Made by a program: the position numbers and the translations under genes. From NCBI GenBank assembly GCA_944381175.1, contig CALWKD010000017.1, positions 25,952-89,951 of the forward strand: a stretch of 64,000 bases of DNA, read 5' to 3'. The notes beneath the pieces were generated by a model that was given only the letters and a program-made list of their open reading frames with translations, was not told the DNA's origin and made no database searches. Origin of the DNA: an uncultured Clostridia bacterium. GTDB lineage: Bacteria; Bacillota; Clostridia; Christensenellales; UBA1242. Of the stretch, positions 12,604-32,773 are shown one piece after another (within the stretch, counting starts at the first letter, position 1; each line of letters opens with the position of its first letter).

Positions 12604-12617
12604 AATTTCCTCCAAAA

Positions 12618-15600
12618 TTAAGTTGTCACATTCCCGCCACCAACAAAGGTGATTTGTCCAGCAGAGTTAACCGTCTCACCGCTCGTCCAGCCAACATAGG
12701 CCCATTGCTGGTTTGAAACAACGTGATATGACCAGTAGAATGGACCAAACCATTGTCTAACAATTATATGTCCATAAAGATATATTTCTTTTGCATGTGT
12801 CGAAACTCCTTCCCCAGATCCTGAAACGCCTCCAACACTAGAATAATTTACATCACTCGTACTCGTGCTGTTAATTGACCAATAATTTTTTATTGAGTCT
12901 TCATAAGATCCATAATCATTTCGGGTATGTCCCGATTGTCCTATATTACAGTAATTATTAAGCAATGCCCCAAAGAATGCAAAATAACCCGCACCCTCAT
13001 CATTGCATTTTTTATCAAAATAATTTTTGCCATTTGAGCCATTTACACCTGTGGTTCCGCTGTTTCCAGATGTATAAATAGTGAAATTATTATAGTCACT
13101 GCCAGTAATCCTTCCAAATCCACCAACACCAGGATTTCCTGCTGATTGAGTTTGAGAGGTTGAGGTATGTGTCGAGGTTCCACTTCCAGCCGCACCAGCT
13201 CGTCCTCCTCCCAAGGCAACACTTCTGTTGTTGAAAGTTCCATTTGCTCCATCACCACCATAACCACCAATTGCTGACTGTCCGCTCATAATAATTGAAC
13301 CATTTTTCTCAGTTCCAGAAGCAACTCCTCCGCTTGCAGCACTAGAACCATTTCCACCTGACTTAGCCTCTCTATCCTTTTTGGTTGCATTTTCAACTTC
13401 AGGTCTAAGATCTCCATATTTATAGTCATCGCTGACAACATTATAGGTTTTCTCCCCATTGTTACCTTTAACCGAATCACCCGCGACAATAACAACTTTA
13501 TCGTTATCGTCCAGATCTCTTGACATAAAATCAACAGTAAATTTGTTTCCATTGCTTCCTTTGTACTCACCATTTTCACCATATTGCGCATTGTTGAGTC
13601 CGATCATTGAGGCATTATTTTCTATTGAAGTTGTTCCAGTCCCAGTCTTTGTTTCATAGTCAACATAAATTTCCCCATTGATGCTACTGCTATTGTATGC
13701 AACATTTCTTATAGTTCCAAACAATTTGACATTTTCAATTGTTACTCCTGTCGAAATGCTCCCAGCAAAAAGACCATTCACACCATCTCCGCCAGCATTT
13801 TGAGCAGTAAAAATTGTATTCTTGACAAATGTATTTGAGATTTCTTCAAAGATTGAGTCTCTTGAAGAAATAAACTTGACGATATAATCTCTTCCAACAA
13901 TATTTTTTTCAAGCGTCGATTGTGTGGCATCTCCCATACTTATATCGGCATCGAGCAGAGCAATGTCCGCTGTTTTGACTTCAGACGAATCTGCCGTAGC
14001 ACACGTAATATTTTTGCTTTTTGTCGCAGACCATCTCACTTGATAATCTCCAGGAGAAGATAATATTATTTCCGAATGATCAACTGTGGTAGTTTCACCA
14101 TTGACTGTATACTCAATTTGAGCCTCTCCGCTCTCAATTGAATCAACTCTTACCTTCACAGATTCAGGGTTTCCAATGAAAATCTCCAGCCTCATAGTTT
14201 GAGATGTTTCTTGATCCTCGAATAATTCCCCTCTAATGAACAACTCGTCCTGATTATAATCATTCTTTTCAAACCATACTTGACCTTCATCTTCGTCAAA
14301 TCCAATTGAGATGACATCCACCTTAAGGGTATATCTGTCGAGCAATTCCTGTTCTGTTGGCATACCTGTTCTTTCATTAAAAGTATCTGTCTCTAAAGTT
14401 CCGTCAACAACTTTGTTTATTTCTTTATATCCTGGACCTGCACCTTCCCATTCAATGGTAGCGGTTTGCTCCGCTCCATTATCATCAGTGTAATGAATTT
14501 CATTTTTACCATCACTAATCGCCTTTGGTAAATAAACATAATAGTATTCATTTACACCCCCAATAGGTGTGGTTGCAGAAAAGTCTAGTTCAATAAATCC
14601 ATTTTCCCAAATTGTGTAAGAATATGTATAAACATATGTTATATCATTAATTGACATTAAAATTGTCTTTTCTGTCGTAACATACGATATTTCTCCATCA
14701 TCAGGATAATACATAATTGTTCCAGTTCCTTGTGTGACCGTATAGGAAATATTTGTAGCATCCTCTTCTTCCAGTATCTTACTGCTCACAGACAAATCAA
14801 TTGAAGCGTGATCTTCAGTTTGGCTTGTCAAAAGATCAAACTCCTCACGACCATAGTTGCTTGTGAGCTTCTGATAGGATAATGTATCACCACCCTCGAG
14901 GTTAAACACAAAATTATTTGATGCGAATGCCCCACCATAATAAATCGTTTCTATTGTTTCTCCACTCGAAATCTCAAATTTGACTGCATCACTTGAACCA
15001 ATTTGGCTTTGATTCACAGTTCCAGTGATTCCATATTTGAAAGTTACATCAATATCTCTAAATCCAAGATTATCAAAAGACACCCCTTCCAAAGCAATTT
15101 CATGAACATTAACACCATCAGAGTTTGTAATGCCTTCAAAATTGGTTCCAACGAAATCCACTCTCCAGCCACCAGTCACATTCTGCAATGTGAAGTCTGT
15201 GCTAGGACTTCTGACGCCATCCGTAATCGTGACCAACCCGCCAAAAATTGTGCTGACACTTGATCCAAGACTGCCAGGAATTTCATTTGAGGTTGTGTAA
15301 TATACGTCAGACTTTGTGTAAATAGTTGAAGCCTTACCTGAAATGTTTTCAAAATAACGTTCAACATTGCTGCTTATAAATCTAAAACTAATAATGTCTT
15401 CATCTGTATTTGTCGTAATTTCCACTCCAACATCATCAGTGTCAAATTTGAAATCACTTCCATCCCAAGAAACTGCGAGTTTTGAAAAACCCTCTTCATT
15501 TAATATATAAACAAAAGGATTTTCTCTGTATCCGTCAAGCCCCGCAACTCCACTGAAGAAATCATCATACGAGATTTGATATTCTGTGTCAGAAATCTGT

Positions 15601-18600
15601 GTAAATTCGCTTAGGCTTGGCAAAGTTTGACTCAAAGTGTTTGTTGTATAATTTCTGAAAGTATATGTCCACGAGTCTGTTCCACTTGTTATTTCTGCAA
15701 TTTCTTGAGAAGCTGACTCTCCGTCACCTGTCCAAACTGCAATATTTCCATTGACTGAAACTTCAGTTGTTTCCGTGATATCAAACGCAATCTGCCTGCC
15801 ATTCAACATCTCTTCTGTCACACCAGACAAATCTTCAAAGCCGATAATCAGATCATTCCCTTCCGATATCACTGATGTTGATGTATATTCAACCTCTTCA
15901 GTTTCTATTGTGGCATTGTTTATTTTGACATTTTCACCAAGCAAATATTCCCTAGTTTCTGAGTCTACTTTCGTCAAATCAATGGTTATTGAGTTTCCAT
16001 TCAAAATTGTGTTATTTTGCACAATGGTAAACTCCAGCAACTTACTTTGATAAGAGAATTCCACAGAGATGTTTTGATTCACCTCTTCTGAGAAATACAA
16101 AACTGGTCCATTTTCGTCGTCACTTGAAGAGTGAACAAGTTTCACCTTATTATTGTCCTTGTCTTTTATGATGGCAAATTCAACAAATTGTGGAGACGTT
16201 CCTCCAACAAATGAGAAACTATCCTTCGTAATTGCATTCCAATCAATTTCATCTCCATCTCCTGCAACAGAAAACTCTATTGTCTCAATTTCTGCAATAT
16301 ATGGAGACAAAATTGTCAACAAATTGCTTGAAGTTTTCGCAACACCAACAGCATCTCCATTGACATTGATAACTTGAAGTTCCTCTGCACTGCCACTCTC
16401 AAAAGCAGAATCTATCTCTGCAATTTTTGAGTTTACAAAATCAGATATGGAAGAACCCAAAGAGTCATCTGTGGCACTTGAAAGCGTGGTCATTGAGGTG
16501 TCACCTGGGACTTCTTCACCCAAGATATAAGCATAATTGTTCAGCCTCTGAAGCACTCTGTCGTAACCATCGAGGTTAGCGTTTTCACTTCCCCACCATC
16601 TTCCAAGGATTGATGAAGCATAATAATCAACGCTTGCTTCCATTTTGTATTGATAGTCAGTAAAATTCGTTCTAGGATCTCCGTGATATCCAGCATAATC
16701 AATTTCCGAAGTTGTCGATAATGAGTCTAATGTGTCTGAAACATCAAAACTTCCAATAAAATATCCATCTTCGATTAAAGCACCCCACCAAGATTTAACT
16801 TGATCACTGTTCTCATTGACCCCTGTAAGCAAATTGTACCTATCGCCAGCTGGTTTGGTTCTTGTCGTAATAAACTTATAAAATGGATGGTATGTGCTCA
16901 ATCTACGATTTATCGTTTCAATTGAATAAACTCTTGCAGGGAAACCATAGGAATCATAACCGCTAATATACAAGCCTGTTTCTTCACCTATTTTATCCTT
17001 ATCTATACGCTTGCTTTCCAACTCGTTTGGTCTCTGGAAATTCGCTATATAATCCTCAGAAAATTTGTTTTCAAATTTTGCCTCATACATCCATTTGTCG
17101 TCACTATCTTGAACATTATCAATCATCATATTTCTGTCAAAAATCATATAACTGATTACTTCTATTTCTCCAACATTTCCGTCGTTTTTAACATTGTTTG
17201 TTGAAGAGATATTTGTGTCACCAATTTCTCCATTTTCTGCAAAGCCAAGACCAAATGCATTAACAAAACGATTGTCACCTGGATTGTAATACATATAAAT
17301 TTTCATTGCAAAATATCCAGACTGAGCTCTATAGGCAGTCTCTTTAAGGCTTCCGCTGATGTCATCAACTAAAATATAATAATCTCTGTCTTCTTTCCCG
17401 AGGGCTTGGACTGGTCCGTCGTTGACACAACCTGTCATTGTTACATTTTGTGCGTAACCAACGATTCCTCCAGCATACGCATAACTTTCACTCTCGTAAG
17501 TGCCAGAGCCCACAAGTGACGCATTGTAAGAGTTTGAAATTTTAACTCCCGAACCTTCATCTCCAGTGGCGTATCCAACAACTCCACCAGACACAACATT
17601 GATTTTTGATGTCTTGCTCGTGCCAAAGTTGCTGAGAACTGAGTTTCCATTGTAAGAATTTTCAATGGTTGACCCACTTACAGCCATTCCGACAACTCCA
17701 CCTGTGATTGCCTTCAGGCTTTCAGATGTCTCTTGAAGTGTTGGCGTCATACTCGAAGAAAATCTCATTGGTGTTATTTTCTGATCCAAGCTTCCAGCGC
17801 TACTGCTTGGATTGTTCATCAAAATTCCATTGTTTACAGCATAATTTATGCTTCCACCAAACCATCCAACAACACCACCAATGATTGCAACACCAGAACC
17901 ATTTGTGATGTTTACCAAACTCTCAAGATTCTCACCAGTATATTCAGTGGCATCTCCTCTTTTGTAAAGTATGCCAGCAATTCCTCCAACTGTTTGCCCG
18001 CTTGAGCCTACTGCACTTATGTCTCCAACGGCAGTTATATTCGACAGTCTTCCGTGAACAATGTTTGCAAGAAGTCCAACAGAAGTCGCTCCAGATTCAA
18101 CATTTCCATTGACGAGCCTCAGGTTTTGAATTGTGCCATAAACTTCACCAAACACACCTGATGTCATTGCGACACCGCTCAAATTTATGGTGTTTCCGCC
18201 ACCATCCAAAACAAAATCTTTGTCTTCTGCACCAATATTTGTACCCGCATTGAAACTCACACTATCACTCAGATCAAAGCCATACCTAAGGACAAATTTG
18301 TAGTCCATATCATAATCTGCCACAGCAACAGTTTCAACCATTTGGTCAAATTTCCCAACACTTGGAACGCCAAGATACCAAGAGTCAAACCTGTCTTGAT
18401 ATCCTATAATTTCATCTCCGTCAGTAATTACATCAACGACAACAAGTTCTGCGTAAGGAACAATTTTGTATTCCTTCTCTTCATCAACCGAAGTCTCCGT
18501 CTCATCATCAACTCCAGCATCCTCTCCACTGCCCGTGTCACCAGTGTCGACATCCGTTCCGTCAGAATCTTCGCTGGTTGAGGTGTAAACATAAGTGGTG

Positions 18601-21600
18601 GAATTTTTTAAGTATCCAAACGCGTGAGATGCATAACCATAGTTTGTCAAGCGGGAGAAATACCAAACATTATATCCGCCATTTGTTGTCTCATATCGAC
18701 CTTCACCAATCTCGGTCACAGCATCTGTGTCATCTTCCGAATCCTCGGTCTCAGGTCTTAAAGTGATTGAATTTATGGAATATCTCTCACCATTGCCATA
18801 AGAAATGGACAATTCTTCGCTTGACTTGTATCCCAAATCTGATTCTGTATCTGTAAGATCAGTTGCACCATCAGCATTCGCTGTTCCATTGATAACTTGT
18901 CTTCCAATGTTAACATTCCCCGATGTTATTGTTCCATTTCCTGCAAAGTAAATCCCACAAGAAAATGTTGTATCCCCACTCAGCACATCATTTCTTTCAA
19001 CTTGTGTAATTGAATAGCAATCTTCCAACGTTCTAACTGCATTTGTTGTTGAAGAATCACTGCCAGCAACTGCATAGGCAAATGTGTAAACATTAACATC
19101 GACATAAGTGGTTATTTTTCCAGAAGAGTATGTCGCCTTAACCATAGAACTAAGTTGATTCATATTTGCAATGCCAGAAACAACGCCTAATGTTGATGCA
19201 CCATAACTGATGTCAGCATCTTCATAACATTGTGCAACAAGCCCTTGTCTCAAATCTCCGACAATACCTGCCACACGAATATTTGCATCTCCACCGACAT
19301 ACATCTCACCTTTGACGCCGACGCCATAGATAAAGGAATTGCCAGTTGCATAACCAACGACGCCACCATAAGCATTTGTTAGCCTATTACTTATATTTGT
19401 TGTTGTTTCAAGGTTTACGATAAGTCCAGAGACGAGACTGAAATTTGGAGTATTTGTCCCTGTTGACGAATAGTCAACACCCATTCTGTCAACTATTCCT
19501 CCTTTGTAAACCACACTGCTACTTTCAATATTTTCATCTTCATCAACACTCTTTCGTGTTATCGTCCTGCCATTTCCGACAATTGCGAAGTTTGTTCCGT
19601 CAGAAGCAATAGAATTTGAAATCTCAAGATTTGCCTCCCCGACAAGCCCGTCGTCAGTGATTGCAACCCAACTGATTCCATTTGTGCTTCCAGAAACGAC
19701 TTTGCTTCCGTCTTCATTTTCCGAATCTATTTGAATATCTTTGTTTCCTTCAGAAATCATGTAAGGGTTGAGTTTTTGTCCGATTTCAGCACCATTAAGA
19801 TTGATAAATTCTGCCAATGAACTGCTCCCCAACAAAGTCAATATGTCATCAGCATAGAGAGATGTCACATCACTCGTCGAATAGAGCAAAGATGTGTAAC
19901 CAGAGAAATTTCCGACTCCATATCCACAATCTTGATTTGGAATCTCTCCACTTTCTTGAGGACTTGAACCTTCATTTTGGAAAGTCATTGTAACGATTGA
20001 GGAGTATTTGTTTCCTGAGTAATTTACGCTGTCTGCATTTGCACCCACAATTGCTCCAACATCTGACAATTCATTTGAAGTTTCATTTGTTCTGTTAAAG
20101 TTTGTGAGCAATGAGAAGCAGTTCTCGATGTTCAATCCGCTTTGTGCTGAGCCAACAATGCCACCAAAAACATAGTTGTCCAGTTGAACATTTTGATAAG
20201 TCCCGCCAACATATTCTGGATAGATGACAAACACATCACCATACGCCAAAGAGTTTGAGATTGTTGCAGAGGTCAACTCAGGAACTGCGCCATCCGCTCC
20301 ACTTGTCCAACTAAACTCTCCCACAACACCACCAGCAGTGACTTTTGCACTGTCCGAAGCGAGAATTCTGAATGTTCCACCAAAGACAAAACTATTTATA
20401 TTAATTGTGTTTGAGATTTCGGCTGAAATTCGACCAAACGCTCCACCATAAATTGAGTGAGCATTTGAAGAGATAATGCTTCCAGTATAGTTGTAACTGC
20501 CACCTGCAGAACCAACTTCAAATGACAATTCCGTGCCTGTGGTTACATCGATGTCTCCCACAACACCGCCAAGGTAAGCATTTGACGTCTTTGCTCCACT
20601 TGTTCCTATCCCATTGACATAAATATTTGTCGAGTTTGAAATCACTCCGCCAATGGTGACAGAACTGTCAACAACTTTTCCTGCAAGAGCAGAAATTGAA
20701 GTGTATATTGTTTTTGTCGTTTCTGAACTTCCAGTGCTTTCAGAATTGTATGTGTCAACAACCAGATTCCCTCCTATGTCGCAATTTCCAGCCATTGACA
20801 AACTTCCGCCATTTGAATAACCAACCACAGCGCCAACACTGTTGTCAATTCCGCCACCCAAACAGAAGGCACTCTCACTTGCCGAGTATTCAAATTGGTT
20901 TGTCGCAAGTTCATTCACATATTTTTCATAATTTGAAACTCCATCGGAATCGGTTTCATAATCAAACAGTCCAGCACCAGCGACATCAAACTTCATCCTG
21001 AGCCCATCGATATTCACAATTCCACTTGCTCTTCCAACAAGCCCGCCGATGTTTGCATTTTCAGCATAGCCACCATTTTGAACTAATTTTCCAAGTATCC
21101 ACGCATTTGGTGCATCATCAAATGAGAAATTGATTGTCGAACGACTTTCTCCGAAAGCAAGTCCAGCATAAAGATTCCCAATAATTCCATTTTGCTCAAT
21201 TGTAAGTCCAGTGCCGTCTGCCCCGTCCGTTTCGCGTTCAACAAAATTTATCTCGTCAGCACCATTAAGTCTGCCCACAAAACCTCCAATATAGAGGTTT
21301 GGAATTTGACTAGTTCCACTTCCCAAAGAAATCTTAAGGTTTATTCCATTCAATTGGTTTACACCAAGAGTAGACTTTGCCATTCCAGTCTTACTTATCT
21401 CTCCAGCAAACAAGCCAGCATAGAAATATGTGCTTGACGAACTTGTTGAAAAATCAAATTCAATGTCAATTTCCGCATCATCACTTGAATCAACGCCAAA
21501 TCTTGAGATATTGATTTCGCTGACGGTCATCTGAGAGAATGCTGATGCTTGTCTGATTCTTCCAGCAAGCAGTCCAACATACACCTCTCCAGCAGTGCCA

Positions 21601-24600: not shown

Positions 24601-27600
24601 ATTTGATTTACATCTTGCAATGCAATTTCGCAAGCAGCATAACAAAGTGAGATTGTTGCATTTTGGTTGTTCCTGTAAACAAATCCCGCAACCATTGCAC
24701 CTTTTGTTCTTGAGTTTTCAATGGCGATGTTTGAATAGGAATTTTTAACCAAAGAACTATTTTCATAAACAAAGCCAGAAATCACTCCAAGAGCCGAGAT
24801 GTTTGTGCCATTTTTGTAGACACTGTGCACAACATTTCCAAAAGAGTCTTCCTCAGGTTCTCCTTCAAGCCCCTCGACATAACTGCTTTGGATGCTCAAT
24901 GAGTTTCTGACAACAAAACCAGCGGTGATTGAGCCGTCATATTCCATAATATTGTCAATCTGTGCATTTTTAACAAATGATGCGCTGATATAGCCTGCAT
25001 TTTGATTTACAAAACCAGAAACCTCGCCTTGCCCTTCCAAGTAGAAGACGCCAAGCGACTGCGATTGAAGATAGTTCACTCCCTCGATGTCAACCACATG
25101 CATAACCGACTCGCCACCAACACGGCTGTTCATAATGGAGGAATTATTTTCAATCACAAACCCAGAAACCACGCTGTTTACATTGCTTGAGTATGAAAGG
25201 GCAATATAATCTGTGTTTGCACCTCTTGTATATTTGACAACCAATCCAGAATTTCCAGTGTTCCTTGAGATTTGGTAATTTTCATCATAATAGGAAACCA
25301 CTTCGCAGTTGTATATGACACCTTCATTTGTGATTGCAAAACCTGCAATTTGGATGTCTGTAAATTGGCGAATGTTGACCGCGATTTGCCCGCCGTTGTA
25401 GATATTCACTCTGACATTTCGCAGAGTCGTGTTTGATGTGACAGTGTCAAATAGAGCAAGTCTGAGAGTGGAACTTTCGGTATTTTGCCTGAAACTGTTT
25501 ATGTGAATTGTGAAGCCATTTCCGTCAAGACTGTCAATCAAATCTGTGCTCAGTGGAGTGTAATCTGAAAGAACAATATCGTTCATCAAGATGTAATCTC
25601 CCGCTTCTTCCGAATTTGTCGCATAATCAATAAATTCTTCTGCTGTTGTAATTTGCGTTGGAGTTTCTTCATCGCTCCAAACCTCCACCACAATCAAGAA
25701 GTAATAATCGTCGACAAGTTCGATGCCTTGATAATTGATGACCGTTCTGAGCCTCATAAGTTGGGTCCCAGCACGCTTTCCTGAAATCATAAGCCTTGTT
25801 GAGCCGTCAGAAAGTGTCTGTTCGCTTATGTTGAAATAATCATTTGGTGTGATTGTGTCTCTGTTTTCATTATATATAGCAGTTGAAGTGTCCTCGTCTG
25901 TCGCATACCAAAGTTGCTGTTTAAGTGTAATTGGATTGTAAGTTCCAGTGTCCTCGTCCAATGCATAGTTTATGTAATACCCGACATCTTCGTCATAGAA
26001 ATAGTTGTTTGTCAAGAAGTCTTCTCTGCTTTCCATCAACTTCTCAACTGCTTCCACTTGGTCTGCATCATTTCTGTCATAATTGTATTCTTCTGGAAGA
26101 ATTGGATAGTCGAAATGCAATTCGGAATTGTCATTCAAATATGCGTTAAACACATCATATGTTCTGCCGTTGTAAGTCCTCGTCCCACTGCTTCCCGAAA
26201 CAGATATTCCGTCGACATCCACTGAGAAATCCACCAAGCAAACTGTCGCCCTTGAGACTTTTATTTCCTGCTCGCCGTTGAGTTCTCTCGAAACGGAAGC
26301 ACAAACATAGAAGATTCCGCTCGTCTGATCGCCAACCAATTTCGCATCAACCCCAGCGATAAGTTGGGCAGTGTAAATTTTGTAGTTCCCAGAAGCAACC
26401 CAAGTTGGAGTTGTGAGAGTGATGTTTGACTCGTTGTTTTGGAGATACAAATTGTAAAGATTTTGGTCAATGCCGACTCTGACGGTGACAGTCGCCGTCT
26501 CACCTTTGCCAAGAAGATAAGTCGTGGCATCGTTGACCCTGACAACAGCATCTTGCAAATAATTTACTGACAATGTCTGACTTCCAGTGGCAAGCACTTG
26601 GTCACCATTGTAATATGTCACAACAAGTCTCACTCCGCTTGTTGAGGCGAATGAACTTGAGATGTAAAGTCTGAAGTAGAAAAGTCCATCTCCCGTCTTG
26701 TCCGCTTCGGTCAAGTTCACACGGATTCCATTTTCGATTGTGTTTGTGGAACTTGAATTCACATAATAGCCATACAGTGAGTTGTATGCAAGTTTTGAAA
26801 TTCCGACAGTTCCGACGCTTGTGCCTGAAACTTCATAAGTCAAAGTGAAATGCGTCATCAAAGCATATTGTGGTGTGACAGAGACAGAGATGATTGCATC
26901 TGAAGCAGGTGCAAGGGTATTCACAACCTCACTTGATGGCGTGAGATAGAGAATGGAGTTTCTTATTTGCCTTCTCTCCACTTTGTAAGTCGTTATGCTG
27001 AAATCTTCAATATCTTGAGTCTCAACTTTCAAATCAATGGTCTTCAAGCAGTTTGTGTTGTCTTGCTGGCTTTGAGCGTTTATCATAAGCACAAAGGAGT
27101 ATTCAGAAGAAACCAAATGCTTCTTGTCTTCGCTTACGCCGACCAAAACTCTGTATCTATGTTCATTTCCAACGCTTGAAACTTTTGCCCAAGACACATC
27201 CAAGGACAAGTTGCTGTCCACATCAAAACGATAAGAATTATCGCTTCCTGTCCCTCGAATCTCCACCTCTCCATATTGTAGAGTGAATACCAAATTGTCG
27301 CTTTCCTCGTCAGTCTTCAACTGAACATCAAACGACGCATATTCAGAAGGGCTGATGATGAGGTTGTTTGCATTTACAATGTCCAAACTCTCCGCACCTT
27401 CGTAAACTCTGACATCAAAGGTCCTCGAAATTTTGCTGTTCACAGCCTCCGCATAGTTTTCGTATCCCTCTTTTGCAGAGAGAGTGTTGTGTTCAAGATT
27501 TGTGTATATAGTTGTTCTGTCGTCATAGAGGTGTTTTTGAAGTCCCAAAAGCACAATTTTGTTCCCACTTCTTGTGACAGTCACATAATCTTTTGCTGTC

Positions 27601-30600
27601 GAATCTCCAACATACTCAAAATCAATGGTGTATCCGTCAGTTTGAAGAGCATATGCAGTCGTTCCGTTCAGATACAACGAACTCGTCGTATTGTAGGAAA
27701 TTGTTCTGCTTTGATTTCTTTGCAAAAGCACAACTTGTTCATCTTGAATTGGCACACCGTCAAGCACAGTGGAAAGTTGTGGCATCATATTGAGAATGAT
27801 AAACTTGAATGTCTTGATTTGTGTGAAATCCATTTTGGAATGAACACTGATGTCAAACTCGTTTATCGAAGTGCTTAAAAGTCTTATTGAATTTGAGGTG
27901 ATTGAAACGAGACTGCTGTCCGTCGTCAAAAGCAAACTTCTTGCTTGTTGTTCTGTCACTCCAAAGAGTTCTGCAAGGGAAATTGTGTTCAAGTTGTCGA
28001 GCATTGCCTTCTCACTTGCGTCCACAATTGTGCTTGTCGGATTGTACATAAACAACACGCCAGTCTCATATGTGACATCGCCGACAGTTTTATCACCCGC
28101 TGACAAAACTCTGTATCTTCCGTCGTTTTCGCTTGTCAAATCTTGGATGCCAATCTCGTCAATGTTCACTGCTGTGCTTTGAGAAACTGTCCTCAAATAA
28201 ATATACCCAAAATTGATGTCGCTGTCAGTTTTCTCCAAATTCCAAATGGTTGAATCCAGCCCAAGACCGTTTATTTTGTCCTCGTCCGTGTCGCTTCCGT
28301 CAAGCGTTATCTTGTTTGATGCAGTGCCATTTATATATTGCTCTGAAGAGTTCACAAAACTGTAGGTGACATTCTTGTATATATCTGAAACAACCTTGTC
28401 CTCATCTGCACCAAAATAGGAAACATAACTATTTTCAAGTGTGACATATTGGTTTGAAGCACTCGACAAGAAGACGTTTGAAACATTTCCAATATATCCA
28501 AAGGATTGAATAAATCTCGCCCCATTTGAACTTCCGCCCGCAAAGACGCCGACAAACCCGTTTGCACTTATTATGTTTTTGTAATTGTAATCAAAATTTG
28601 TTCCGTCAGCATTTGTCGTTGGCAAAGAATACGCATAAACATAAGATGTCCTCACGACGCTTGTGCCTCCAGCAAACCCTACGATTCCGCCGACATTTCC
28701 TGAAGAAGTTATAGTGTTAAATTCGCCCTGTCTCTCACTGCTCTTAAACCTATAGAACTCAAATCCAGTCCCTTCAATAAGCCCATTGTTCTCTCCGACA
28801 ATTCCGCCGACAAAAGTGCTTTGAGCGTTTATTGAAGCACCATAAACAAAGACATTTCTGATTGTTCCGTAGTTAAGTCCAGCGACAGCACCTGTGCGTT
28901 GGGTCGCGTAAGAAATCAATCTGCTTTCATAATACTCACTTGCGATATTTTCGTAATATACGTCAATCGCACAGCTTTCAATCAACCCGTCTTCTCCAAC
29001 TTCATTTGCAATAAATCCTGCACTTGCACCACCATTCGCAGTCACTTCCCCCACAAAAGTGAGGTCTTTGATTGTTCCCGAAAGGTTGTTCACAAATGCT
29101 TGACTTCCATTTGTAAATTTCAGCGTGACATTGGAGTCATTTCCATAAATCATACCACTCAAATTTGTATAAGACTGCCAGCCAGAGAGGGTAATGTCGT
29201 TCATAACTCTGTAATATTTAGCGGTATCGATAGCCTCCAAATCAGCCTGATTGTAAACCCTGATTGCCGTGCCTTCGCTGTTTCCGTCAGCAATGGTTAT
29301 GGCAATTCTCAAACTTATGTTGCTGTAATAAACCCTTTCGCCGTCATTATTTATGAAATAATTTGAAATATCTTGACTTCCATTGATAATCTCGTCATAT
29401 CTTTCATTCAAGTCTGACAAAGGAATGTAGAGCGAATTTTCTTTTATACTGCCAGTTTCGTCAGTTGTGTAGTTGTAGACCAAAATCTGTCGAACACCAT
29501 CGACATTCTTAACCATATCATTTGGCAAGAGATAAATATATCCTCTTCCGCCCTTGTCGGTGTTTATGTTCACATTGAAAATTTGCCCGATTGATGAGGT
29601 TGTGATTTTTATGTCATTTGTAGAACCGCTGAAAGCGTGATATACAGCAGTCAATCCAACATCATTTGCATCACTTGGCTCAACTGAAGTGGAAATTGTG
29701 AAATTCTTTTCGCTGGCATTTGAAGAGGTCAAATTCAAATAAATCTCGCCATCTGCCGTCCTATTCACCCACTGAACAGACTCCAAACGTTTTTCATTTT
29801 TGATTTCTATTTGAATTTCCGCCGTTCTGTAGAATCCGTGTTCTTCATCTGAGTAAACTACTCTCAAAATATCATTTACAGAAGTTTGCAAATTGGTTGA
29901 CTTCGCAGTAATTCTGAAAGTCAAGTTTCTCCCACCATTTGCAATTGTCACATTTGAAATTTCGTAATAATCATTTTTCCACAAAGAACTTGTCTCAGCA
30001 GAAAGTTCCTGCAGACCAGATTCAAATGAGAAATACTCAAGACTGTCGACATATGTTGGGATGTTGTCATCTTGACGCATTGTCAATGTGACATCCTCAA
30101 CAGAACGATTCATATCACTTATGCTGAGCGTATCCGCACTGTAAAGAAGAGTTGTCCTGACATTTGAAGAGAGATATCTAACAGAATAAAAACTCTCAAT
30201 TGCAAAAATTCTCACAAAGGTAATCGTTTCGTGCTCCTCGTTGTATCCTTCTGCCAGAATTGCAACAAAACCCTTAAAGTCAGAATTTGACAAGGTCAAC
30301 ATTGTTTGTGAAATTGAGAAAGGTGCATTTTCAAGCGTGTTGAAATACATATAAGGATTTGTAACTTGTCCTGCAAAATTTGTGATTGCATCAATTCCTT
30401 CGCTTGAAAACTTTTCATTTGCCAACTCCAGCAAAGCATCGTAATCATTTTCATAAGACAACCCTTCTTCAACCGCCATAAATCGCATAAATTGGTCGAA
30501 GGACATATAGCGATAAGAGATTCCATTCTCGGTTAAAGTCGCGTTTTGGACAGAGGTGGAAAGAGGAAGCGAAGCCCCTGCCTCAATCATAAGCCTAGAC

Positions 30601-32693
30601 AAAGAAGTGTTTGCATTTGAAGAGTCAGCAGACTCAGAAATAGCGTTGTTTTCCAAGAGGAAATTTTGCACCGTTGAGTCGTCCATAAAGACATTTGCTG
30701 AGGACTTGTCATTGTTTTGGACAACCAGCGAGTCAATAGGAACAAACGCCTCAACATCAAACCTCTCAGACACTTTCCCCGTGATATGCTCAAACCAGAA
30801 CGACGAAGTATCCGAAAATCTGTAACTCGTCAAGTTTACGGTGAAACTTCCAACGATGTAGCCCTCACCATTTTCTTCTCCACTCTCCAAAAGTGTAAAG
30901 TCTGAATACTCAAATCCACTCGTCCCGTCATCACAAAGCGTAAGCCCAGAGTCAGTTGAAATTCCAGTGATTTTAACAGTAAATTCAAGTTCTCTTGACG
31001 AATAAACACTTGATGAGATGTAAGTCACACTGTCAATATCCGAGTCATCTTCGTTTGTGACATTCAAAGTGGTGTCATCGGAGATTTTGTAGAAAGTGAG
31101 GTGCAACAATGTGTAGGCACTTGTGTTGTGAGTTGGAGATTCAAACCTAAACTCAATATCCTCAAGCACATCAACCTCTTCTCCAGCGGTCACATAGATG
31201 CTTGTTCCTGTCTCCAATTGATTTGAAACATAGGTGTAAGAACCGCTTCTGGTGAAAGTTAAAGATTGTCCATTTGCGGTGTAAAAGTTTGCAATTTTTG
31301 AGATGTCAGCAGGAGAACTGATTGAGACACCTGCCAAATTGTCTTGTCGAGTGTCAATCGAAATTCTGTAATATCTGTCATCAACGGCAACATCTGTCGG
31401 TCCAACCACACCCTCAATTTGATATCCAAGCCCTGTCTCATAACTTGAAAAGACATCTTGAAAGGTGTTGTTCAAACTGTATCCGTCTGCGTCATAAAGA
31501 TCAATGCTTGTCGCCGCATACGAAATGTCCAAATTCAAAGTTGTTTTTGTGTTGTTCGCCTCTGTGCCAAAAGTCGAAATTGCGTAGTTATAATCTGCAT
31601 AATCGACTTGCAAATAAAACTCAAAACTTCCGAAAATGTTTTTTGCACTGTTGTCGATGGCGTCAATTTCGATATTGTAAGTCTTCACCGTGCCTTGACT
31701 GCCACTCGTGCTTTCCGTGTAATCGAAAATGAAATAATCTTCATAGATAGACCTGTCAACAAGTTCCGCCTGCCCATTCACAACTCGATAAACGACAGCA
31801 CTGAGTCTCAACTCATTCTCTGGGCTTACATTAAGGGTCAAAGTCCCTTCAGCAGAAGAAAGATTGGAGTCATTTCTCTTGAGCGAAACTGTTGCAGATG
31901 TTGCCTGAACTATGCCGTTCCTATAAAACACATTCCCATCCACCTCAAAATTTTGAATTGTGGAATTTTCAAGCACCTCAAGCGTCAATGTTCTGCTTAT
32001 GTTTGAGTTTAGTTTGTATGTAGCGACAACATTCAAATTGTCATAGGTGTATCCGCCATAGACCAACAAAGAATTTCCACTTATCTCGGCAACCAATTCG
32101 TCATCCACAAACATTTGTTTGTCCGAATCGTTTAAATTTCCGTCATCGTTTAAATCTCCAAAAGTCCAATCAATATCACAGATATTTGCGGTTGCAGGTT
32201 CAAAATCAAAATAGTCAGTGGTGACGAGTTCTTTTCTCACACCTTTCACAGCAAACAAATTTGACCTTCCGTCCTCGGAGTCTTCAGTCGCATAAGGCAA
32301 ATCTTCCAAGACTGTGTTAACAGTGACATCGATATATTCAAATTGACTGGAATCTTCAATCGCAGACACTTTGATTTGTGCATAACCACTGTTTTTCTCT
32401 GCTTTGGTCAAAATCCTAAATGCATACTTCCCATTTGATTTTTGAGTCGTTGTGTTTGACCTGTCAAGTTCGATACAATCTTGTCCATAGATAATCTCGA
32501 CATTAACCCCCGCATTTGAGTTGTCAAGTTCGACCTCAATCTCCTTTTGCCTATTCACACCTTGGTCGTAGTTTGTGTAAAGCACCACTTCCGTCTCTGA
32601 AACAGAAAGAGAAACTTTCTTGTCGCAAGCAGACAAAAGCACCCCACCAAGTATCATAAAAACACTGAGAATACCCAAAGCAAATTTCTTCAT
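12618..32693 (-). CDS. giant (6,691 aa) surface lipoprotein with Ig-like modules and GLUG-type beta-helix repeat blocks
   Basis: Uninterrupted 20.1-kb ORF. The ATG at 32693 follows GGAGG at 5-nt spacing. The N-terminus MKKFALGILSVFMILGGVLLSAC is a signal peptide plus lipobox. A Big_2-like module follows it. I read more than 30 GG[IVL]VG / AG[FI]V motifs by eye (e.g. VGGIVGENNGLI, YAGGIVGYAQN, FIGGLVGYMGG). They are grouped in blocks, each opened by a head of the type ...YRLVNNI...LDGNGFTI. I found no LPxTG, SLH or choline-binding motif. Confidence 0.85.
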   Translation of the reverse strand: MKKFALGILSVFMILGGVLLSACDKKVSLSVSETEVVLYTNYDQGVNRQKEIEVELDNSNAGVNVEIIYGQDCIELDRSNTTTQKSNGKYAFRILTKAEKNSGYAQIKVSAIEDSSQFEYIDVTVNTVLEDLPYATEDSEDGRSNLFAVKGVRKELVTTDYFDFEPATANICDIDWTFGDLNDDGNLNDSDKQMFVDDELVAEISGNSLLVYGGYTYDNLNVVATYKLNSNISRTLTLEVLENSTIQNFEVDGNVFYRNGIVQATSATVSLKRNDSNLSSAEGTLTLNVSPENELRLSAVVYRVVNGQAELVDRSIYEDYFIFDYTESTSGSQGTVKTYNIEIDAIDNSAKNIFGSFEFYLQVDYADYNYAISTFGTEANNTKTTLNLDISYAATSIDLYDADGYSLNNTFQDVFSSYETGLGYQIEGVVGPTDVAVDDRYYRISIDTRQDNLAGVSISSPADISKIANFYTANGQSLTFTRSGSYTYVSNQLETGTSIYVTAGEEVDVLEDIEFRFESPTHNTSAYTLLHLTFYKISDDTTLNVTNEDDSDIDSVTYISSSVYSSRELEFTVKITGISTDSGLTLCDDGTSGFEYSDFTLLESGEENGEGYIVGSFTVNLTSYRFSDTSSFWFEHITGKVSERFDVEAFVPIDSLVVQNNDKSSANVFMDDSTVQNFLLENNAISESADSSNANTSLSRLMIEAGASLPLSTSVQNATLTENGISYRYMSFDQFMRFMAVEEGLSYENDYDALLELANEKFSSEGIDAITNFAGQVTNPYMYFNTLENAPFSISQTMLTLSNSDFKGFVAILAEGYNEEHETITFVRIFAIESFYSVRYLSSNVRTTLLYSADTLSISDMNRSVEDVTLTMRQDDNIPTYVDSLEYFSFESGLQELSAETSSLWKNDYYEISNVTIANGGRNLTFRITAKSTNLQTSVNDILRVVYSDEEHGFYRTAEIQIEIKNEKRLESVQWVNRTADGEIYLNLTSSNASEKNFTISTSVEPSDANDVGLTAVYHAFSGSTNDIKITTSSIGQIFNVNINTDKGGRGYIYLLPNDMVKNVDGVRQILVYNYTTDETGSIKENSLYIPLSDLNERYDEIINGSQDISNYFINNDGERVYYSNISLRIAITIADGNSEGTAIRVYNQADLEAIDTAKYYRVMNDITLSGWQSYTNLSGMIYGNDSNVTLKFTNGSQAFVNNLSGTIKDLTFVGEVTANGGASAGFIANEVGEDGLIESCAIDVYYENIASEYYESRLISYATQRTGAVAGLNYGTIRNVFVYGASINAQSTFVGGIVGENNGLIEGTGFEFYRFKSSERQGEFNTITSSGNVGGIVGFAGGTSVVRTSYVYAYSLPTTNADGTNFDYNYKNIISANGFVGVFAGGSSNGARFIQSFGYIGNVSNVFLSSASNQYVTLENSYVSYFGADEDKVVSDIYKNVTYSFVNSSEQYINGTASNKITLDGSDTDEDKINGLGLDSTIWNLEKTDSDINFGYIYLRTVSQSTAVNIDEIGIQDLTSENDGRYRVLSAGDKTVGDVTYETGVLFMYNPTSTIVDASEKAMLDNLNTISLAELFGVTEQQARSLLLTTDSSLVSITSNSIRLLSTSINEFDISVHSKMDFTQIKTFKFIILNMMPQLSTVLDGVPIQDEQVVLLQRNQSRTISYNTTSSLYLNGTTAYALQTDGYTIDFEYVGDSTAKDYVTVTRSGNKIVLLGLQKHLYDDRTTIYTNLEHNTLSAKEGYENYAEAVNSKISRTFDVRVYEGAESLDIVNANNLIISPSEYASFDVQLKTDEESDNLVFTLQYGEVEIRGTGSDNSYRFDVDSNLSLDVSWAKVSSVGNEHRYRVLVGVSEDKKHLVSSEYSFVLMINAQSQQDNTNCLKTIDLKVETQDIEDFSITTYKVERRQIRNSILYLTPSSEVVNTLAPASDAIISVSVTPQYALMTHFTLTYEVSGTSVGTVGISKLAYNSLYGYYVNSSSTNTIENGIRVNLTEADKTGDGLFYFRLYISSSFASTSGVRLVVTYYNGDQVLATGSQTLSVNYLQDAVVRVNDATTYLLGKGETATVTVRVGIDQNLYNLYLQNNESNITLTTPTWVASGNYKIYTAQLIAGVDAKLVGDQTSGIFYVCASVSRELNGEQEIKVSRATVCLVDFSVDVDGISVSGSSGTRTYNGRTYDVFNAYLNDNSELHFDYPILPEEYNYDRNDADQVEAVEKLMESREDFLTNNYFYDEDVGYYINYALDEDTGTYNPITLKQQLWYATDEDTSTAIYNENRDTITPNDYFNISEQTLSDGSTRLMISGKRAGTQLMRLRTVINYQGIELVDDYYFLIVVEVWSDEETPTQITTAEEFIDYATNSEEAGDYILMNDIVLSDYTPLSTDLIDSLDGNGFTIHINSFRQNTESSTLRLALFDTVTSNTTLRNVRVNIYNGGQIAVNIRQFTDIQIAGFAITNEGVIYNCEVVSYYDENYQISRNTGNSGLVVKYTRGANTDYIALSYSSNVNSVVSGFVIENNSSIMNSRVGGESVMHVVDIEGVNYLQSQSLGVFYLEGQGEVSGFVNQNAGYISASFVKNAQIDNIMEYDGSITAGFVVRNSLSIQSSYVEGLEGEPEEDSFGNVVHSVYKNGTNISALGVISGFVYENSSLVKNSYSNIAIENSRTKGAMVAGFVYRNNQNATISLCYAACEIALQDVNQMQFSGVDDFGNSLNNGTISLSYFYNKSRVDETIQTKVSTSAISISEVDEKDSFYGFSFASADGAYDGIWVMTDDGITLVSANQIAVSNRYATTTGNVTSIFYSRNIRNADTLEYVDLSYGGENNPIIIRNAEDFAKATGNATLTGSEISAYKEYYTDTEVTGRYRLVNNIQMTDIAQDAEDEGTIKLTTSKKVFRGLLDGNGFTISDISLGSSESVENYGLFARLQNAVIMNLDLTVESVHNTQANVVGVLAGTALDSRILSITLSPSENDEEGASIAVQGHNIVGGVVGMILGESYLSDITVNDVDVSSESYEEGKTVGANDSYIEGGKTLRSVVEDLDNGASLKDNVGRLSYAGAIAGFVDMYQNQDEGAVTFSTSREASDFDVVTVRASDSVNVYAEVAGGLFGYVGKSTLVYDATVTINQNMALSTQGVNPSYIISKNLYAGGLIGENYGGLFAVSASYEENLQTEIETNENSYYNQNTSVERGQLSIFSYTQNDEDYSTRINNPLFIGGLVGYMGGGYIYVGYNKLNVIAHTPNSENPNEVVVGGIVGLSGVSQTRYSLGFTTQQMDVTVLYYEVYASGDTYSETSFSGGIIGALEKNGNSTGAVAMKNVMAMNYYSYLGTSLSADENSPATGLTGYVSDKHYMLVGRIFDSDENEIMSENTILPSGFYIINSTNDIAMNMRDGVVIGTSMGSYTVGGYKQIEMGSVTATLKEVGFASLAGRVSVSGDFTSALDTVILKAQHIGSDELQEMSSAYARMRNYFLSNGWDEKYWSHEQNTLLPIIQLLPKVNVQYWDVYNTEEVLAAMEDSSLTIVVRGRVTDDENDLSRTDIDLRKSGTQIDGRDIATTIENFRGRLVSYEYYMNTETGGRVTAPITEDGQIVGGDVGDMVGIILEQELFESISDGAQIEGVNFYLEPQEADGDSGFSIVSNEAEASIFRDINVVINKSMTLSSGVIHTDGNYKAIGLLTGLATSTSFYNISVEFKEDAGISFNASAGTAGEVYVGLLAGRIRQASAFSQMTVSEINISRFGVDSSDDAEIDIEFDFSTSSSSTYFYAGLFAGEISKTGMAKSTLGVNQLNGINLKISLGSGTSQIPNLYIGGFVGRLNGADEINFVERETDGADGTGLTIEQNGIIGNLYAGLAFGESRSTINFSFDDAPNAWILGKLVQNGGYAENANIGGLVGRASGIVNIDGLRMKFDVAGAGLFDYETDSDGVSNYEKYVNELATNQFEYSASESAFCLGGGIDNSVGAVVGYSNGGSLSMAGNCDIGGNLVVDTYNSESTGSSETTKTIYTSISALAGKVVDSSVTIGGVISNSTNIYVNGIGTSGAKTSNAYLGGVVGDIDVTTGTELSFEVGSAGGSYNYTGSIISSNAHSIYGGAFGRISAEISNTININSFVFGGTFRILASDSAKVTAGGVVGEFSWTSGADGAVPELTSATISNSLAYGDVFVIYPEYVGGTYQNVQLDNYVFGGIVGSAQSGLNIENCFSLLTNFNRTNETSNELSDVGAIVGANADSVNYSGNKYSSIVTMTFQNEGSSPQESGEIPNQDCGYGVGNFSGYTSLLYSTSDVTSLYADDILTLLGSSSLAEFINLNGAEIGQKLNPYMISEGNKDIQIDSENEDGSKVVSGSTNGISWVAITDDGLVGEANLEISNSIASDGTNFAIVGNGRTITRKSVDEDENIESSSVVYKGGIVDRMGVDYSSTGTNTPNFSLVSGLIVNLETTTNISNRLTNAYGGVVGYATGNSFIYGVGVKGEMYVGGDANIRVAGIVGDLRQGLVAQCYEDADISYGASTLGVVSGIANMNQLSSMVKATYSSGKITTYVDVNVYTFAYAVAGSDSSTTNAVRTLEDCYSITQVERNDVLSGDTTFSCGIYFAGNGTITSGNVNIGRQVINGTANADGATDLTDTESDLGYKSSEELSISYGNGERYSINSITLRPETEDSEDDTDAVTEIGEGRYETTNGGYNVWYFSRLTNYGYASHAFGYLKNSTTYVYTSTSEDSDGTDVDTGDTGSGEDAGVDDETETSVDEEKEYKIVPYAELVVVDVITDGDEIIGYQDRFDSWYLGVPSVGKFDQMVETVAVADYDMDYKFVLRYGFDLSDSVSFNAGTNIGAEDKDFVLDGGGNTINLSGVAMTSGVFGEVYGTIQNLRLVNGNVESGATSVGLLANIVHGRLSNITAVGDISAVGSSGQTVGGIAGILYKRGDATEYTGENLESLVNITNGSGVAIIGGVVGWFGGSINYAVNNGILMNNPSSSAGSLDQKITPMRFSSSMTPTLQETSESLKAITGGVVGMAVSGSTIENSYNGNSVLSNFGTSKTSKINVVSGGVVGYATGDEGSGVKISNSYNASLVGSGTYESESYAYAGGIVGYAQNVTMTGCVNDGPVQALGKEDRDYYILVDDISGSLKETAYRAQSGYFAMKIYMYYNPGDNRFVNAFGLGFAENGEIGDTNISSTNNVKNDGNVGEIEVISYMIFDRNMMIDNVQDSDDKWMYEAKFENKFSEDYIANFQRPNELESKRIDKDKIGEETGLYISGYDSYGFPARVYSIETINRRLSTYHPFYKFITTRTKPAGDRYNLLTGVNENSDQVKSWWGALIEDGYFIGSFDVSDTLDSLSTTSEIDYAGYHGDPRTNFTDYQYKMEASVDYYASSILGRWWGSENANLDGYDRVLQRLNNYAYILGEEVPGDTSMTTLSSATDDSLGSSISDFVNSKIAEIDSAFESGSAEELQVINVNGDAVGVAKTSSNLLTILSPYIAEIETIEFSVAGDGDEIDWNAITKDSFSFVGGTSPQFVEFAIIKDKDNNKVKLVHSSSDDENGPVLYFSEEVNQNISVEFSYQSKLLEFTIVQNNTILNGNSITIDLTKVDSETREYLLGENVKINNATIETEEVEYTSTSVISEGNDLIIGFEDLSGVTEEMLNGRQIAFDITETTEVSVNGNIAVWTGDGESASQEIAEITSGTDSWTYTFRNYTTNTLSQTLPSLSEFTQISDTEYQISYDDFFSGVAGLDGYRENPFVYILNEEGFSKLAVSWDGSDFKFDTDDVGVEITTNTDEDIISFRFISSNVERYFENISGKASTIYTKSDVYYTTSNEIPGSLGSSVSTIFGGLVTITDGVRSPSTDFTLQNVTGGWRVDFVGTNFEGITNSDGVNVHEIALEGVSFDNLGFRDIDVTFKYGITGTVNQSQIGSSDAVKFEISSGETIETIYYGGAFASNNFVFNLEGGDTLSYQKLTSNYGREEFDLLTSQTEDHASIDLSVSSKILEEEDATNISYTVTQGTGTIMYYPDDGEISYVTTEKTILMSINDITYVYTYSYTIWENGFIELDFSATTPIGGVNEYYYVYLPKAISDGKNEIHYTDDNGAEQTATIEWEGAGPGYKEINKVVDGTLETDTFNERTGMPTEQELLDRYTLKVDVISIGFDEDEGQVWFEKNDYNQDELFIRGELFEDQETSQTMRLEIFIGNPESVKVRVDSIESGEAQIEYTVNGETTTVDHSEIILSSPGDYQVRWSATKSKNITCATADSSEVKTADIALLDADISMGDATQSTLEKNIVGRDYIVKFISSRDSIFEEISNTFVKNTIFTAQNAGGDGVNGLFAGSISTGVTIENVKLFGTIRNVAYNSSSINGEIYVDYETKTGTGTTSIENNASMIGLNNAQYGENGEYKGSNGNKFTVDFMSRDLDDNDKVVIVAGDSVKGNNGEKTYNVVSDDYKYGDLRPEVENATKKDREAKSGGNGSSAASGGVASGTEKNGSIIMSGQSAIGGYGGDGANGTFNNRSVALGGGRAGAAGSGTSTHTSTSQTQSAGNPGVGGFGRITGSDYNNFTIYTSGNSGTTGVNGSNGKNYFDKKCNDEGAGYFAFFGALLNNYCNIGQSGHTRNDYGSYEDSIKNYWSINSTSTSDVNYSSVGGVSGSGEGVSTHAKEIYLYGHIIVRQWFGPFYWSYHVVSNQQWAYVGWTSGETVNSAGQITFVGGGNVTT

Positions 32694-32743
32694 TGTGTCC
32701 TCCAATTTTAATATCTGCAATTAAGCAAATTTTTATATAATAT

Positions 32744-32773
32744 ATTATAAATAAAACAATTGCGAAAAGTCAA
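32744..32773 (-). promoter_or_regulatory. sigma-A-type promoter of the giant gene
   Basis: On the minus strand: TTGACT (32773..32768), 18-nt spacer, TATAAT (32749..32744). This predicts a leader of about 44 nt ending in GGAGG-N5-ATG. Confidence 0.45.

Follow-up and report, generated by a model that had tools for sequence, protein, structure and literature searches.

A 6,691-residue putative lipoprotein with divergent GLUG-type beta-helix blocks in an uncultured clostridial lineage

The window considered here is a stretch of 64,000 nucleotides (nt) from an uncultured Clostridia bacterium (assembly GCA_944381175.1, contig CALWKD010000017.1, positions 25,952 to 89,951), and nearly a third of it is occupied by one open frame on the minus strand. 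The locus raises three linked questions: whether so large a gene is real, what kind of protein it encodes, and what that protein, referred to below as the giant protein, may do for the cell. The gene proves to be intact in several species, and its product carries the features of a lipoprotein together with a series of beta-helix blocks that have diverged beyond recognition by BLAST. On present evidence an adhesin-like fibre on the cell surface seems a somewhat better explanation than not.

An intact gene under purifying selection

A listing of open reading frames (ORFs) gives a single frame at 12618..32720 on the minus strand, which from the ATG at 32693 encodes 6,691 residues with one terminal stop. 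An earlier note, made from the letters of the DNA alone, had drawn attention to this unbroken 6,691-codon frame, and both the translation and the orthologues bear it out. When one genome per GTDB species was scanned with a 1,201-residue tile of the giant protein as query, four loci were found with relatives 65-69% identical to the tile; these loci are labelled L003-L006. The frame is intact and full-length in three of them (6,590 residues in L003, 6,644 in L004 and 6,698 in L006), while the L005 copy leaves its contig after 3,477 residues. All four orthologues open with the same signal peptide and lipobox. By their records all four are metagenome-assembled genomes (MAGs): two carry the title 'uncultured Christensenella sp.' (MGBC), one 'uncultured Lachnospiraceae bacterium' and one 'uncultured bacterium'. 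A more distant homologue, L008 (ENA ERZ28655269 scaffold_2088), is colinear and in the same frame, with 40.6% identity over residues 1-4468. In addition, a separate ENA assembly contributes a fragment of 1,415 residues with 100% identity to the window protein.

The L008 homologue is interrupted by a single in-frame TAA at about 12788, which divides it into 929 and at least 4,129 residues; homology resumes immediately and in frame. This TAA may stem from an error in sequencing, reflect a recent nonsense mutation or be subject to readthrough.

The pattern of substitution is that of a protein-coding gene. By the Nei-Gojobori method, the proportion of nonsynonymous differences (pN) is 0.17-0.51 against a proportion of synonymous differences (pS) of 0.57-0.77 in every segment. 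The DNA of the gene is free of tandem repeats, its direct repeats do not exceed 34 nt, and there is therefore nothing in it to mislead an assembler. The competing explanation is that the gene is an artefact, either because the assembly is chimeric or because the open frame is non-coding. No point in its favour was found; the protein database contains only the 1,415-residue fragment and not the full-length protein of the window. Against it stand the same intact frame of 6.6-6.7 thousand residues in three independent assemblies, with conserved synteny, together with a pN far below pS, the absence of DNA repeats and the conservation of the regulatory signals described below. Misassembly and chance are thereby excluded, and the probability of an artefact is regarded as negligible. 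The giant gene is real and under purifying selection.

The start of the gene and the region upstream of it contain the following features (window coordinates).

12618..32693, minus strand: entire coding region, with 6,691 codons for the giant protein and a stop at 12618-12620; has intact orthologues
32699..32703, minus strand: ribosome-binding site GGAGG, 5 nt before the ATG (32693-32691)
32744..32773, minus strand: sigma-70-type promoter, TTGACT-18-TATAAT, matching the consensus at 11 of 12 positions and invariant in five orthologues
32778..32784, plus strand: heptamer TGTCGAA, or TTCGACA when read along the gene strand, which matches the consensus of the Spo0A 0A-box and lies directly before the -35 box
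32713..32730, minus strand: small hairpin in the 5' untranslated region (5'-UTR) with a 6-bp stem, ATTTGC/ATCTGC-N6-GCAGAT, read from the orthologue alignment
32625..32693, minus strand: predicted lipoprotein signal peptide with the lipobox L-S-A-C (Cys23), from the translation, the orthologues and hydrophobicity

The promoter, the GGAGG-N5-ATG start and the LLSAC motif had all been named in the earlier note and were recovered, the promoter proving near-consensus. Promoter, 5'-UTR and ribosome-binding site are almost invariant across the five orthologues despite saturated synonymous sites. The loop of the 5'-UTR hairpin varies among orthologues, whilst its stem is retained through G.U changes. 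Upstream conservation (window 32713-32790, minus strand; five orthologues) starts sharply at TTTCGACAAA-ATTTGACTTT, and an invariant AT-rich stretch lies between the 0A-box/-35 area and the hairpin. The conserved stretch could comprise a regulator site and a 5' hairpin that stabilises the 20-kb messenger RNA. The 0A-box heptamer is likewise invariant in the upstream alignment of the five orthologues. It is not enriched in the window, where 18 copies were found against 13 expected; for want of such enrichment, control by Spo0A was rejected as an established feature, and a regulatory role for the heptamer is offered purely as a hypothesis.

The N-terminus, MKKFALGILSVFMILGGVLLSAC, presents a KK pair, a hydrophobic core and the L-S-A-C lipobox with Cys23, and so combines the sequence characters of a lipoprotein: a charged n-region, an h-region and a lipobox of the form [LVI][ASTVI][GAS]C within the first ~35 residues. 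Either LLSAC or LLSGC is present in all five orthologues. The signal peptide is the sole hydrophobic segment of the whole protein, which is otherwise acidic (D+E ~13% versus K+R ~6%) and rich in S, G, T, N and V. No LPxTG motif (pattern LP.T[GAS]), no C-terminal hydrophobic segment and no SLH or CW_binding match in Pfam was found in the giant protein; motif, Pfam and hydrophobicity scans thus agree with the earlier observation that it lacks LPxTG, SLH, CWB and a C-terminal transmembrane segment. Its placing among the largest bacterial proteins was overstated: it is large but well short of the record, since bacterial proteins are reported to reach 85,804 residues, and in Firmicutes some are reported to exceed 30,000 (bioRxiv 10.1101/2023.11.21.568195).

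Fold and family of the giant protein

Searches of family libraries return almost nothing. Pfam gave no match to 2,400-residue pieces of the giant protein and only noise with 760-residue tiles at E<=10, and neither NCBIfam nor PHROGs yielded a significant family. When orthologue alignments of residues 23-800, 2346-2820, 2821-3420, 4801-5200 and 5901-6691 served as profiles against all PDB sequences, nothing real was found; a profile match to designed toroid repeats was dismissed as spurious. The best score of GLUG (PF07581) is 7.3 bits (E=9.7, at about residues 1331-1352), below the gathering threshold of 20.5 bits. The layout of the protein, from the N-terminus onwards, has instead been assembled from motifs, profile comparison, modelling and conservation.

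32310..32624, minus strand: first predicted extracellular module, residues 24-128, modelled as all-beta with ~8 strands at a predicted local distance difference test score (pLDDT) of 65-80; no Big_2 match in Pfam
29277..32309, minus strand: N-terminal region, residues 129-1139, model pLDDT <50, 47-73% conserved among orthologues
28188..29276, minus strand: B1, GLUG-like beta-helix block, residues 1140-1502, from motifs and its profile links to B6 and B3
25659..28187, minus strand: inter-block region without motifs, residues 1503-2345, 51-74% conserved among orthologues
24534..25658, minus strand: B2, residues 2346-2720, head ITTAEEF...LDGNGFTI followed by a predicted AGFV-type right-handed beta-helix; the best-modelled part
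22749..24227, minus strand: B3, residues 2823-3315, head IIIRNAEDF...LLDGNGFTI followed by a predicted GGxVG-type beta-helix; holds the motif that aligns with the database homologue P0009
19899..22232, minus strand: B4, residues 3488-4265, GLUG-like motif clusters with weak profile links
18900..19700, minus strand: B5, residues 4332-4598, a GLUG-like motif cluster
17400..18302, minus strand: B6, residues 4798-5098, head FVLDGGGNTINL followed by GGxVG units; paralogous to B1 and B3
13494..17093, minus strand: fast-evolving distal region, residues 5201-6400, 21-29% identity and still colinear
12621..13493, minus strand: conserved Gly-rich C-terminal module, residues 6401-6691, with IGGYGGDG, GGGxAGAAG, GNxGxGGFGRI and terminal SWTSGETVNSAG

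The head motifs quoted in the earlier note were all found in their places: ITTAEEFIDY at residue 2348, LDGNGFTI at 2389 and 2895, IIIRNAEDFAK at 2823 and FVLDGGGNTINL at 4827. The pattern GG[IVL]VG occurs 14 times, against a mean of 0.1 in shuffled sequence (~140-fold), AGF[VI] four times and G[GA][IVLF][VIA]G 22 times. A count of more than 30 such motifs, made by eye, is reached only with the looser pattern [GAS]G[IVLF][VIA], which occurs 40 times; the strict patterns are fewer. GLUG-like motifs cluster at residues 1268-1335, 2983-3291, 3803-4213, 4443 and 4903-5075, and a related series of AGF[VI]/SGFV motifs runs through residues 2460-2690. An iterated hidden Markov model (HMM) of the unit detects 22-26 units in the giant protein and none in shuffled or reversed sequence, a result that is partly circular because the seeds were taken from the giant itself.

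At the level of BLASTP, self-comparison reveals no sequence repeats: an all-versus-all search of 300-residue tiles gave no off-diagonal match better than E=0.02, and the off-diagonal scores of window HMMs were marginal. Profile comparison reaches further. Eight segments from the proposed blocks and nine control regions were each represented by a profile of the orthologue alignment and compared all versus all with hhalign (136 pairs). The 11 best pairs were all block-to-block, and the first pair to involve a control region appeared at E=0.02. The leading pairs were B1 with B6 (E=2.3e-6), B3 with B6 (8.2e-6), B1 with B3 (1.7e-4) and B2 with B3 (heads only, 3.5e-4), followed by B4b with B5 and then B4a with B4b. 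By this comparison blocks B1-B6 are paralogous, albeit very divergent. Six of the seven blocks proposed earlier thus keep their positions, the motif clusters and hhalign links falling within them. The seventh, a short one at 13690-13900 (residues ~6265-6335), is indistinguishable from background in hhalign.

The connection to GLUG is an indirect one. The best-conserved tile of the giant protein recovers 12 proteins at E<=1e-3 in 5.8 billion clusters. Pfam matches GLUG in two of the 12, P0009 reaching E=7.6e-9 and 35.9 bits, and the P0009 motif GGLVGYLTGGKLSYSYSRVAV aligns in register with the giant's GGLVGYMGGGYIYVGYNKLNV (GGLVG) at residue 3210. What survives of the label 'GLUG-type' is therefore the fold and the transitive link through P0009, whereas the giant itself fails the Pfam GLUG model. 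With that limit, 'GLUG-type beta-helix blocks' correctly describes the fold and a distant homology.

Direct modelling bears on two of the blocks. AlphaFold2, run on residues 2346-3420 with the 12 database homologues, gave a mean pLDDT of 68, with ~85 over the first 370 residues and 80-90 in the core of the second block. The first 370 modelled residues form regular triplets of strands of 3-4 residues. The leading Foldseek matches in the PDB are right-handed parallel beta-helices, at E ~1e-2, the weakness of which is attributed to a two-block query with low-confidence linkers. Heading the list, with a probability of 0.98 each, are the immunoglobulin A1 (IgA1) protease of Streptococcus pneumoniae (6xja) and BACOVA_03286 (3n6z, 'putative immunoglobulin A1 protease'); PfbA, Ag43, a serine-rich repeat protein (SRRP) of Lactobacillus reuteri, phage tailspikes and pectate, fucoidan and alginate lyases are also matched. 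Many of the matched structures belong to adhesins or to domains that are not catalytic. The model supports a right-handed beta-helix for residues 2346-3315, the other blocks being tied in by hhalign alone.

The N-terminal region is less tractable. Its AlphaFold model was built from three sequences, residues 23-1200 having two database homologues of which one is identical. The mean pLDDT is 36, and only residues ~52-122 reach 65-80, as about eight strands. For this unreliable model Foldseek points to beta-sandwiches in tandem, as in pilins, cadherins and Ig. No Big_2 or other Ig-like Pfam family matched any tile of the giant at E<=10. The Big_2 and Ig-like modules of the earlier note accordingly find no counterpart in Pfam; in the model, moderate confidence is confined to the first ~100 residues, which come out as all-beta, against ~1,000 further residues claimed as Ig-like. 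It is plausible that this first module is Ig-like.

Divergence along the protein and its proposed role

Conservation falls away with distance from the N-terminus. Identity to the three full-length orthologues is 47-79% over residues 1-3200 (65-79% near the anchor), 36-49% over residues 3600-5200 and 21-29% over residues 5200-6400, rising to 33-37% in the last ~290 residues, and the gradient is repeated in every orthologue pair. Flanking genes in the same genomes are 68-81% identical. Measured against this genomic baseline, the stalk changes at roughly the ordinary pace and the distal quarter far more quickly. Along the protein the nonsynonymous rate (dN) climbs from 0.19 to ~0.8 and its ratio to the synonymous rate (dS), omega, from ~0.12 to ~0.35-0.5, with dS saturated. 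The distal region is colinear and significantly similar among orthologues (BLASTP E 1e-5 to 1e-37), a pattern of accelerated divergence and not of cassette replacement. The C-terminal 1,192 residues have zero homologues in a database of 5.8 billion proteins.

Directly after this most variable stretch comes the Gly-rich C-terminal module. Its ~290 residues contain 17% Gly, with conserved islands SSIGGYGGDGAHGTF, IGGYGGDGAHG, GGGKAGAAG, GNSGIGGFGRI, TSGNGGT and terminal SWTSGETVNSAGGFT, and no Pfam or PDB match. A cap, a folding nucleus or a contact site are candidate roles. RTX-type calcium-binding repeats were considered for this segment and rejected: it holds one GGxGxD-like nonapeptide only, and no Pfam match.

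These features are best accommodated, though with little more than even confidence, by a non-enzymatic, adhesin-like fibre of the cell surface that is held at its N-terminus with the far end facing outside. The signal peptide would route the protein through the Sec pathway; Lgt would add diacylglycerol to Cys23 and LspA would cut off the signal peptide, leaving the mature protein in the outer leaflet of the cytoplasmic membrane. From there ~6,670 acidic residues would project outwards through the wall, the beta-rich proximal region first. The six degenerate GLUG-type beta-helix blocks, with their heads ending in (L)DGxGxTI and unrelated linker modules between them, would follow and make a long, stiff stalk. 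The membrane-distal ~1,200 residues, diverging ~4x faster than the stalk and capped by the conserved Gly-rich module, may engage host glycans or mucus, other cells or matrix in a species-specific manner, or may be exposed to phage or immune pressure. We infer surface exposure, fibre geometry and a binding function from these features; a non-catalytic protein, whether adhesin or spacer, is most likely. One may go further and consider a fibre hundreds of nm long, its distal region, under the Gly-rich cap, a species-specific recognition device that could mediate cell-cell aggregation or attachment to a partner or host in this Christensenella-like gut lineage. Expression would be gated by Spo0A through the invariant 0A-box, and the protein would found a new surface-fibre family with new folds, but this larger proposal is improbable as it stands.

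Several observations weigh against the fibre. About 60% of the giant protein (residues 129-1139, 1503-2345 and 5100-6691) is without a fold assignment. Many of the beta-helix matches, at their Foldseek E of ~1e-2, are lyases or hydrolases, and a catalytic role may yet apply. Lipidation of Cys23 is itself a prediction from the lipobox. The rapid change of the distal region could reflect relaxed constraint rather than diversifying selection, omega not exceeding 1 and dS being saturated. Finally, a variable recognition element at the tip would not lead one to expect the conserved C-terminal module.

Genomic setting, rival explanations and wider meaning

The neighbours of the giant gene are ordinary chromosomal genes of a Firmicutes/Clostridia organism, all on the same strand. 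Upstream lie genes for Pth, Mfd, two unknown proteins, a SpoIIT/DUF1779 protein, an M23 peptidase and SpoIIID (Pfam E=2.9e-29); downstream a RadC-like gene is followed by those for UvrB and UvrA. The features closest to the giant are these.

33010..33342, minus strand: spoIIID, conserved upstream neighbour, from Pfam and synteny
11848..12615, minus strand: radC-like gene abutting the giant's stop codon, from Pfam and synteny
11809..11847, minus strand: intrinsic-terminator-like hairpin after radC, with an 18-bp stem and a T run

The order M23-spoIIID-giant-radC is retained in the orthologues, and its upstream portion even in L008. Because the first terminator-like hairpin downstream of the giant on its strand, at 11847-11809, comes after radC, the two genes are probably co-transcribed. 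If so, transcription of a gene associated with DNA repair would be linked to that of a 20-kb gene for a surface protein. The first possible start of the radC-like ORF, a TTG at 12615, abuts the giant's stop (12618-12620); the gap is 16 nt in L003.

Four further ORFs without a Pfam match lie in the same region, all on the minus strand. Two, at 37299-39071 (590 residues) and 35311-35844 (177 residues), fall between Mfd and the giant, and two, at 10882-11304 (140 residues) and 8250-8828 (192 residues), between radC and uvrA. In L008 the corresponding positions after Mfd are taken by genes of 630 and 177 residues. The sole RNA gene found in the window by Rfam and ARAGORN is a tRNA-Glu(TTC) at 60015-60089 on the plus strand.

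All 12 database homologues come from uncultured Clostridia or unnamed metagenome contigs, most of them cut by contig ends, and they align colinearly to residues 1773-3908 of the giant. Judged by this search with the best-conserved tile, the family is tiny and clade-restricted. The earlier note had mentioned neither this narrow distribution nor the lack of sequence repeats, the fall in conservation, the Gly-rich end or the spoIIID/radC synteny. In two MAGs of distant sporeformers, the homologues P0008 and P0005 sit amid very large genes without Pfam matches (L001 1-15322 and L002 118-21030, respectively). The row in L001 runs to 4,118, 1,056, 1,501 and 1,773 residues, and that in L002 to 2,239 and 1,363 and, further on, 1,027 (with faint GLUG) and 2,740 residues. 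The large neighbours in both were not matched by tblastn with the giant as query; they may be further orphan surface giants. In L002, similarity to residues 3042-3325 of the giant continues at 11084-11788, past the called stop of P0005 at 11030, which suggests that this end is a frameshift or pseudogene break.

Other roles for the giant protein have to be weighed against that of a fibre. It might be a tethered multi-catalytic scaffold whose beta-helix blocks are polysaccharide lyases or glycoside hydrolases acting on dietary or host glycans of the gut. The list of Foldseek matches lends itself to this idea, including as it does FdlA fucoidan lyase, pectate lyases, PL6 alginate lyases, chondroitinase B, GH110, GH136 and tailspike depolymerases, and the giant's relatives come from gut MAGs. 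However, no enzyme family is matched in Pfam or NCBIfam even at E<=10, and neither HExxH nor another enzyme signature occurs in the giant. GGxVG-type turns are characteristic of the GLUG class and not of known lyase families. The two top matches, 6xja and 3n6z, were identified at the level of the PDB entry, and in the S. pneumoniae IgA1 protease the beta-helix forms the N-terminal domain (NTD), apart from the catalytic residues, which lie in the middle and C-terminal domains (MD and CTD; PMC7695701). A degradative scaffold is thus rather unlikely. Less likely still is a filament or appendage of the sporulating envelope or spore surface, with expression tied to Spo0A or the sporulation programme. 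The conserved neighbourhood SpoIIT-M23-spoIIID-giant would fit such a filament, as would the perfect 0A-box heptamer abutting the -35 box in all five orthologues and the occurrence of distant homologues in MAGs that carry SpoIIR, YpeB, SleB-like and SipL genes. Yet the promoter is of the vegetative sigma-70/sigma-A type and not of the sigma-E, K, F or G type, the heptamer is not enriched in the window, adjacency to spoIIID does not amount to co-regulation, and the downstream partner, radC, is a housekeeping gene.

A conserved stalk with a highly variable stretch towards the C-terminus, and beta-helical architecture, also recalls contact-dependent effectors of the CdiA/Rhs kind, in which a beta-helical stalk delivers a variable C-terminal toxin. 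The variable part here spans ~1,200 residues that are colinear and homologous among orthologues, not a swapped cassette, and the extreme C-terminus is more conserved than the region before it. No immunity-like small ORF follows the giant, radC being the conserved downstream gene, and no TPS, FHA, Rhs, PT-TG or toxin match was obtained in Pfam. A polymorphic toxin of this kind was for these reasons set aside as already largely refuted, and is very improbable.

As a putative surface fibre the giant protein can be set beside several known systems. It shares with the GLUG beta-helix domains (PF07581; the NTD of 6xja, and 3n6z, both of which we take to be members of the family) a right-handed parallel beta-helix, GG[LIV][VA]G-type turns and a head ending in DGxGxTI. 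Unlike them it fails the Pfam model, strings together six blocks that lie beyond mutual BLAST recognition and has no protease or other catalytic module attached. Ebh, SiiE and proteins of the LapA/BapA type are, likewise, surface fibres of several thousand residues thought to attach cells to substrates. Such classical giant adhesins consist of many near-identical tandem repeats, Ig-like or of the FIVAR type, whereas the giant has no internal repeat at BLASTP E<0.02 and no repeats in its DNA.

Among Firmicutes surface proteins, the L. reuteri SRRP (5nxk) and PfbA (4mr0) use a pectate-lyase-like beta-solenoid for binding. They differ in having a single solenoid, serine-rich glycosylated stalks, an LPxTG sortase anchor and, for SRRPs, export by the accessory Sec (aSec) system, none of which the giant possesses; its predicted lipid anchor is at the opposite end. 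Also comparable are Giant1-5 of Apilactobacillus kunkeei (3,000-8,000 residues; PMC12863079), which are also very large, poorly annotated, fast-evolving extracellular proteins of Firmicutes with beta-solenoids. Their evolution is shaped by recombination, and their function has been inferred from structure prediction only (PMC12863079). Giant1-4 carry one N-terminal solenoid at the distal tip, an alpha-helical repeat stalk and a C-terminal SH3b-like wall-binding domain (PMC12863079). The present protein, by contrast, has a predicted N-terminal lipid anchor, is almost all beta where modelled, contains multiple solenoids and lacks internal sequence repeats; its gene is single-copy and syntenic, in contrast to the five-gene cluster of A. 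kunkeei. With an N-terminal lipid in place of a C-terminal sortase or SH3b module, the polarity of the molecule would therefore be reversed.

A giant beta-helix surface protein in a bacterium of the Gram-positive type is a known category, one that specialists would expect in such genomes. What is new lies in the combination of an N-terminal lipid anchor, as predicted here, with six mutually unrecognisable blocks, an absence of repeats, a position outside curated libraries and fixed, single-copy synteny. Between the species that have kept the gene intact, synonymous sites are saturated, and the gene must therefore be of importance to the cell. That 20 kb of an uncultured gut clostridial genome should encode 6,691 residues without a match to any curated family indicates that large surface structures of common gut anaerobes remain uncatalogued, and ~4,000 residues of this protein lie outside any assigned fold. 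The six beta-helix blocks, each past BLAST recognition of the others, form a natural series for probing the sequence limits of the fold, and the gradient of evolutionary rate from the proximal to the distal end predicts which part contacts the environment. Should the giant protein prove to be an adhesin, it may help to determine how this lineage associates with its host or partners.

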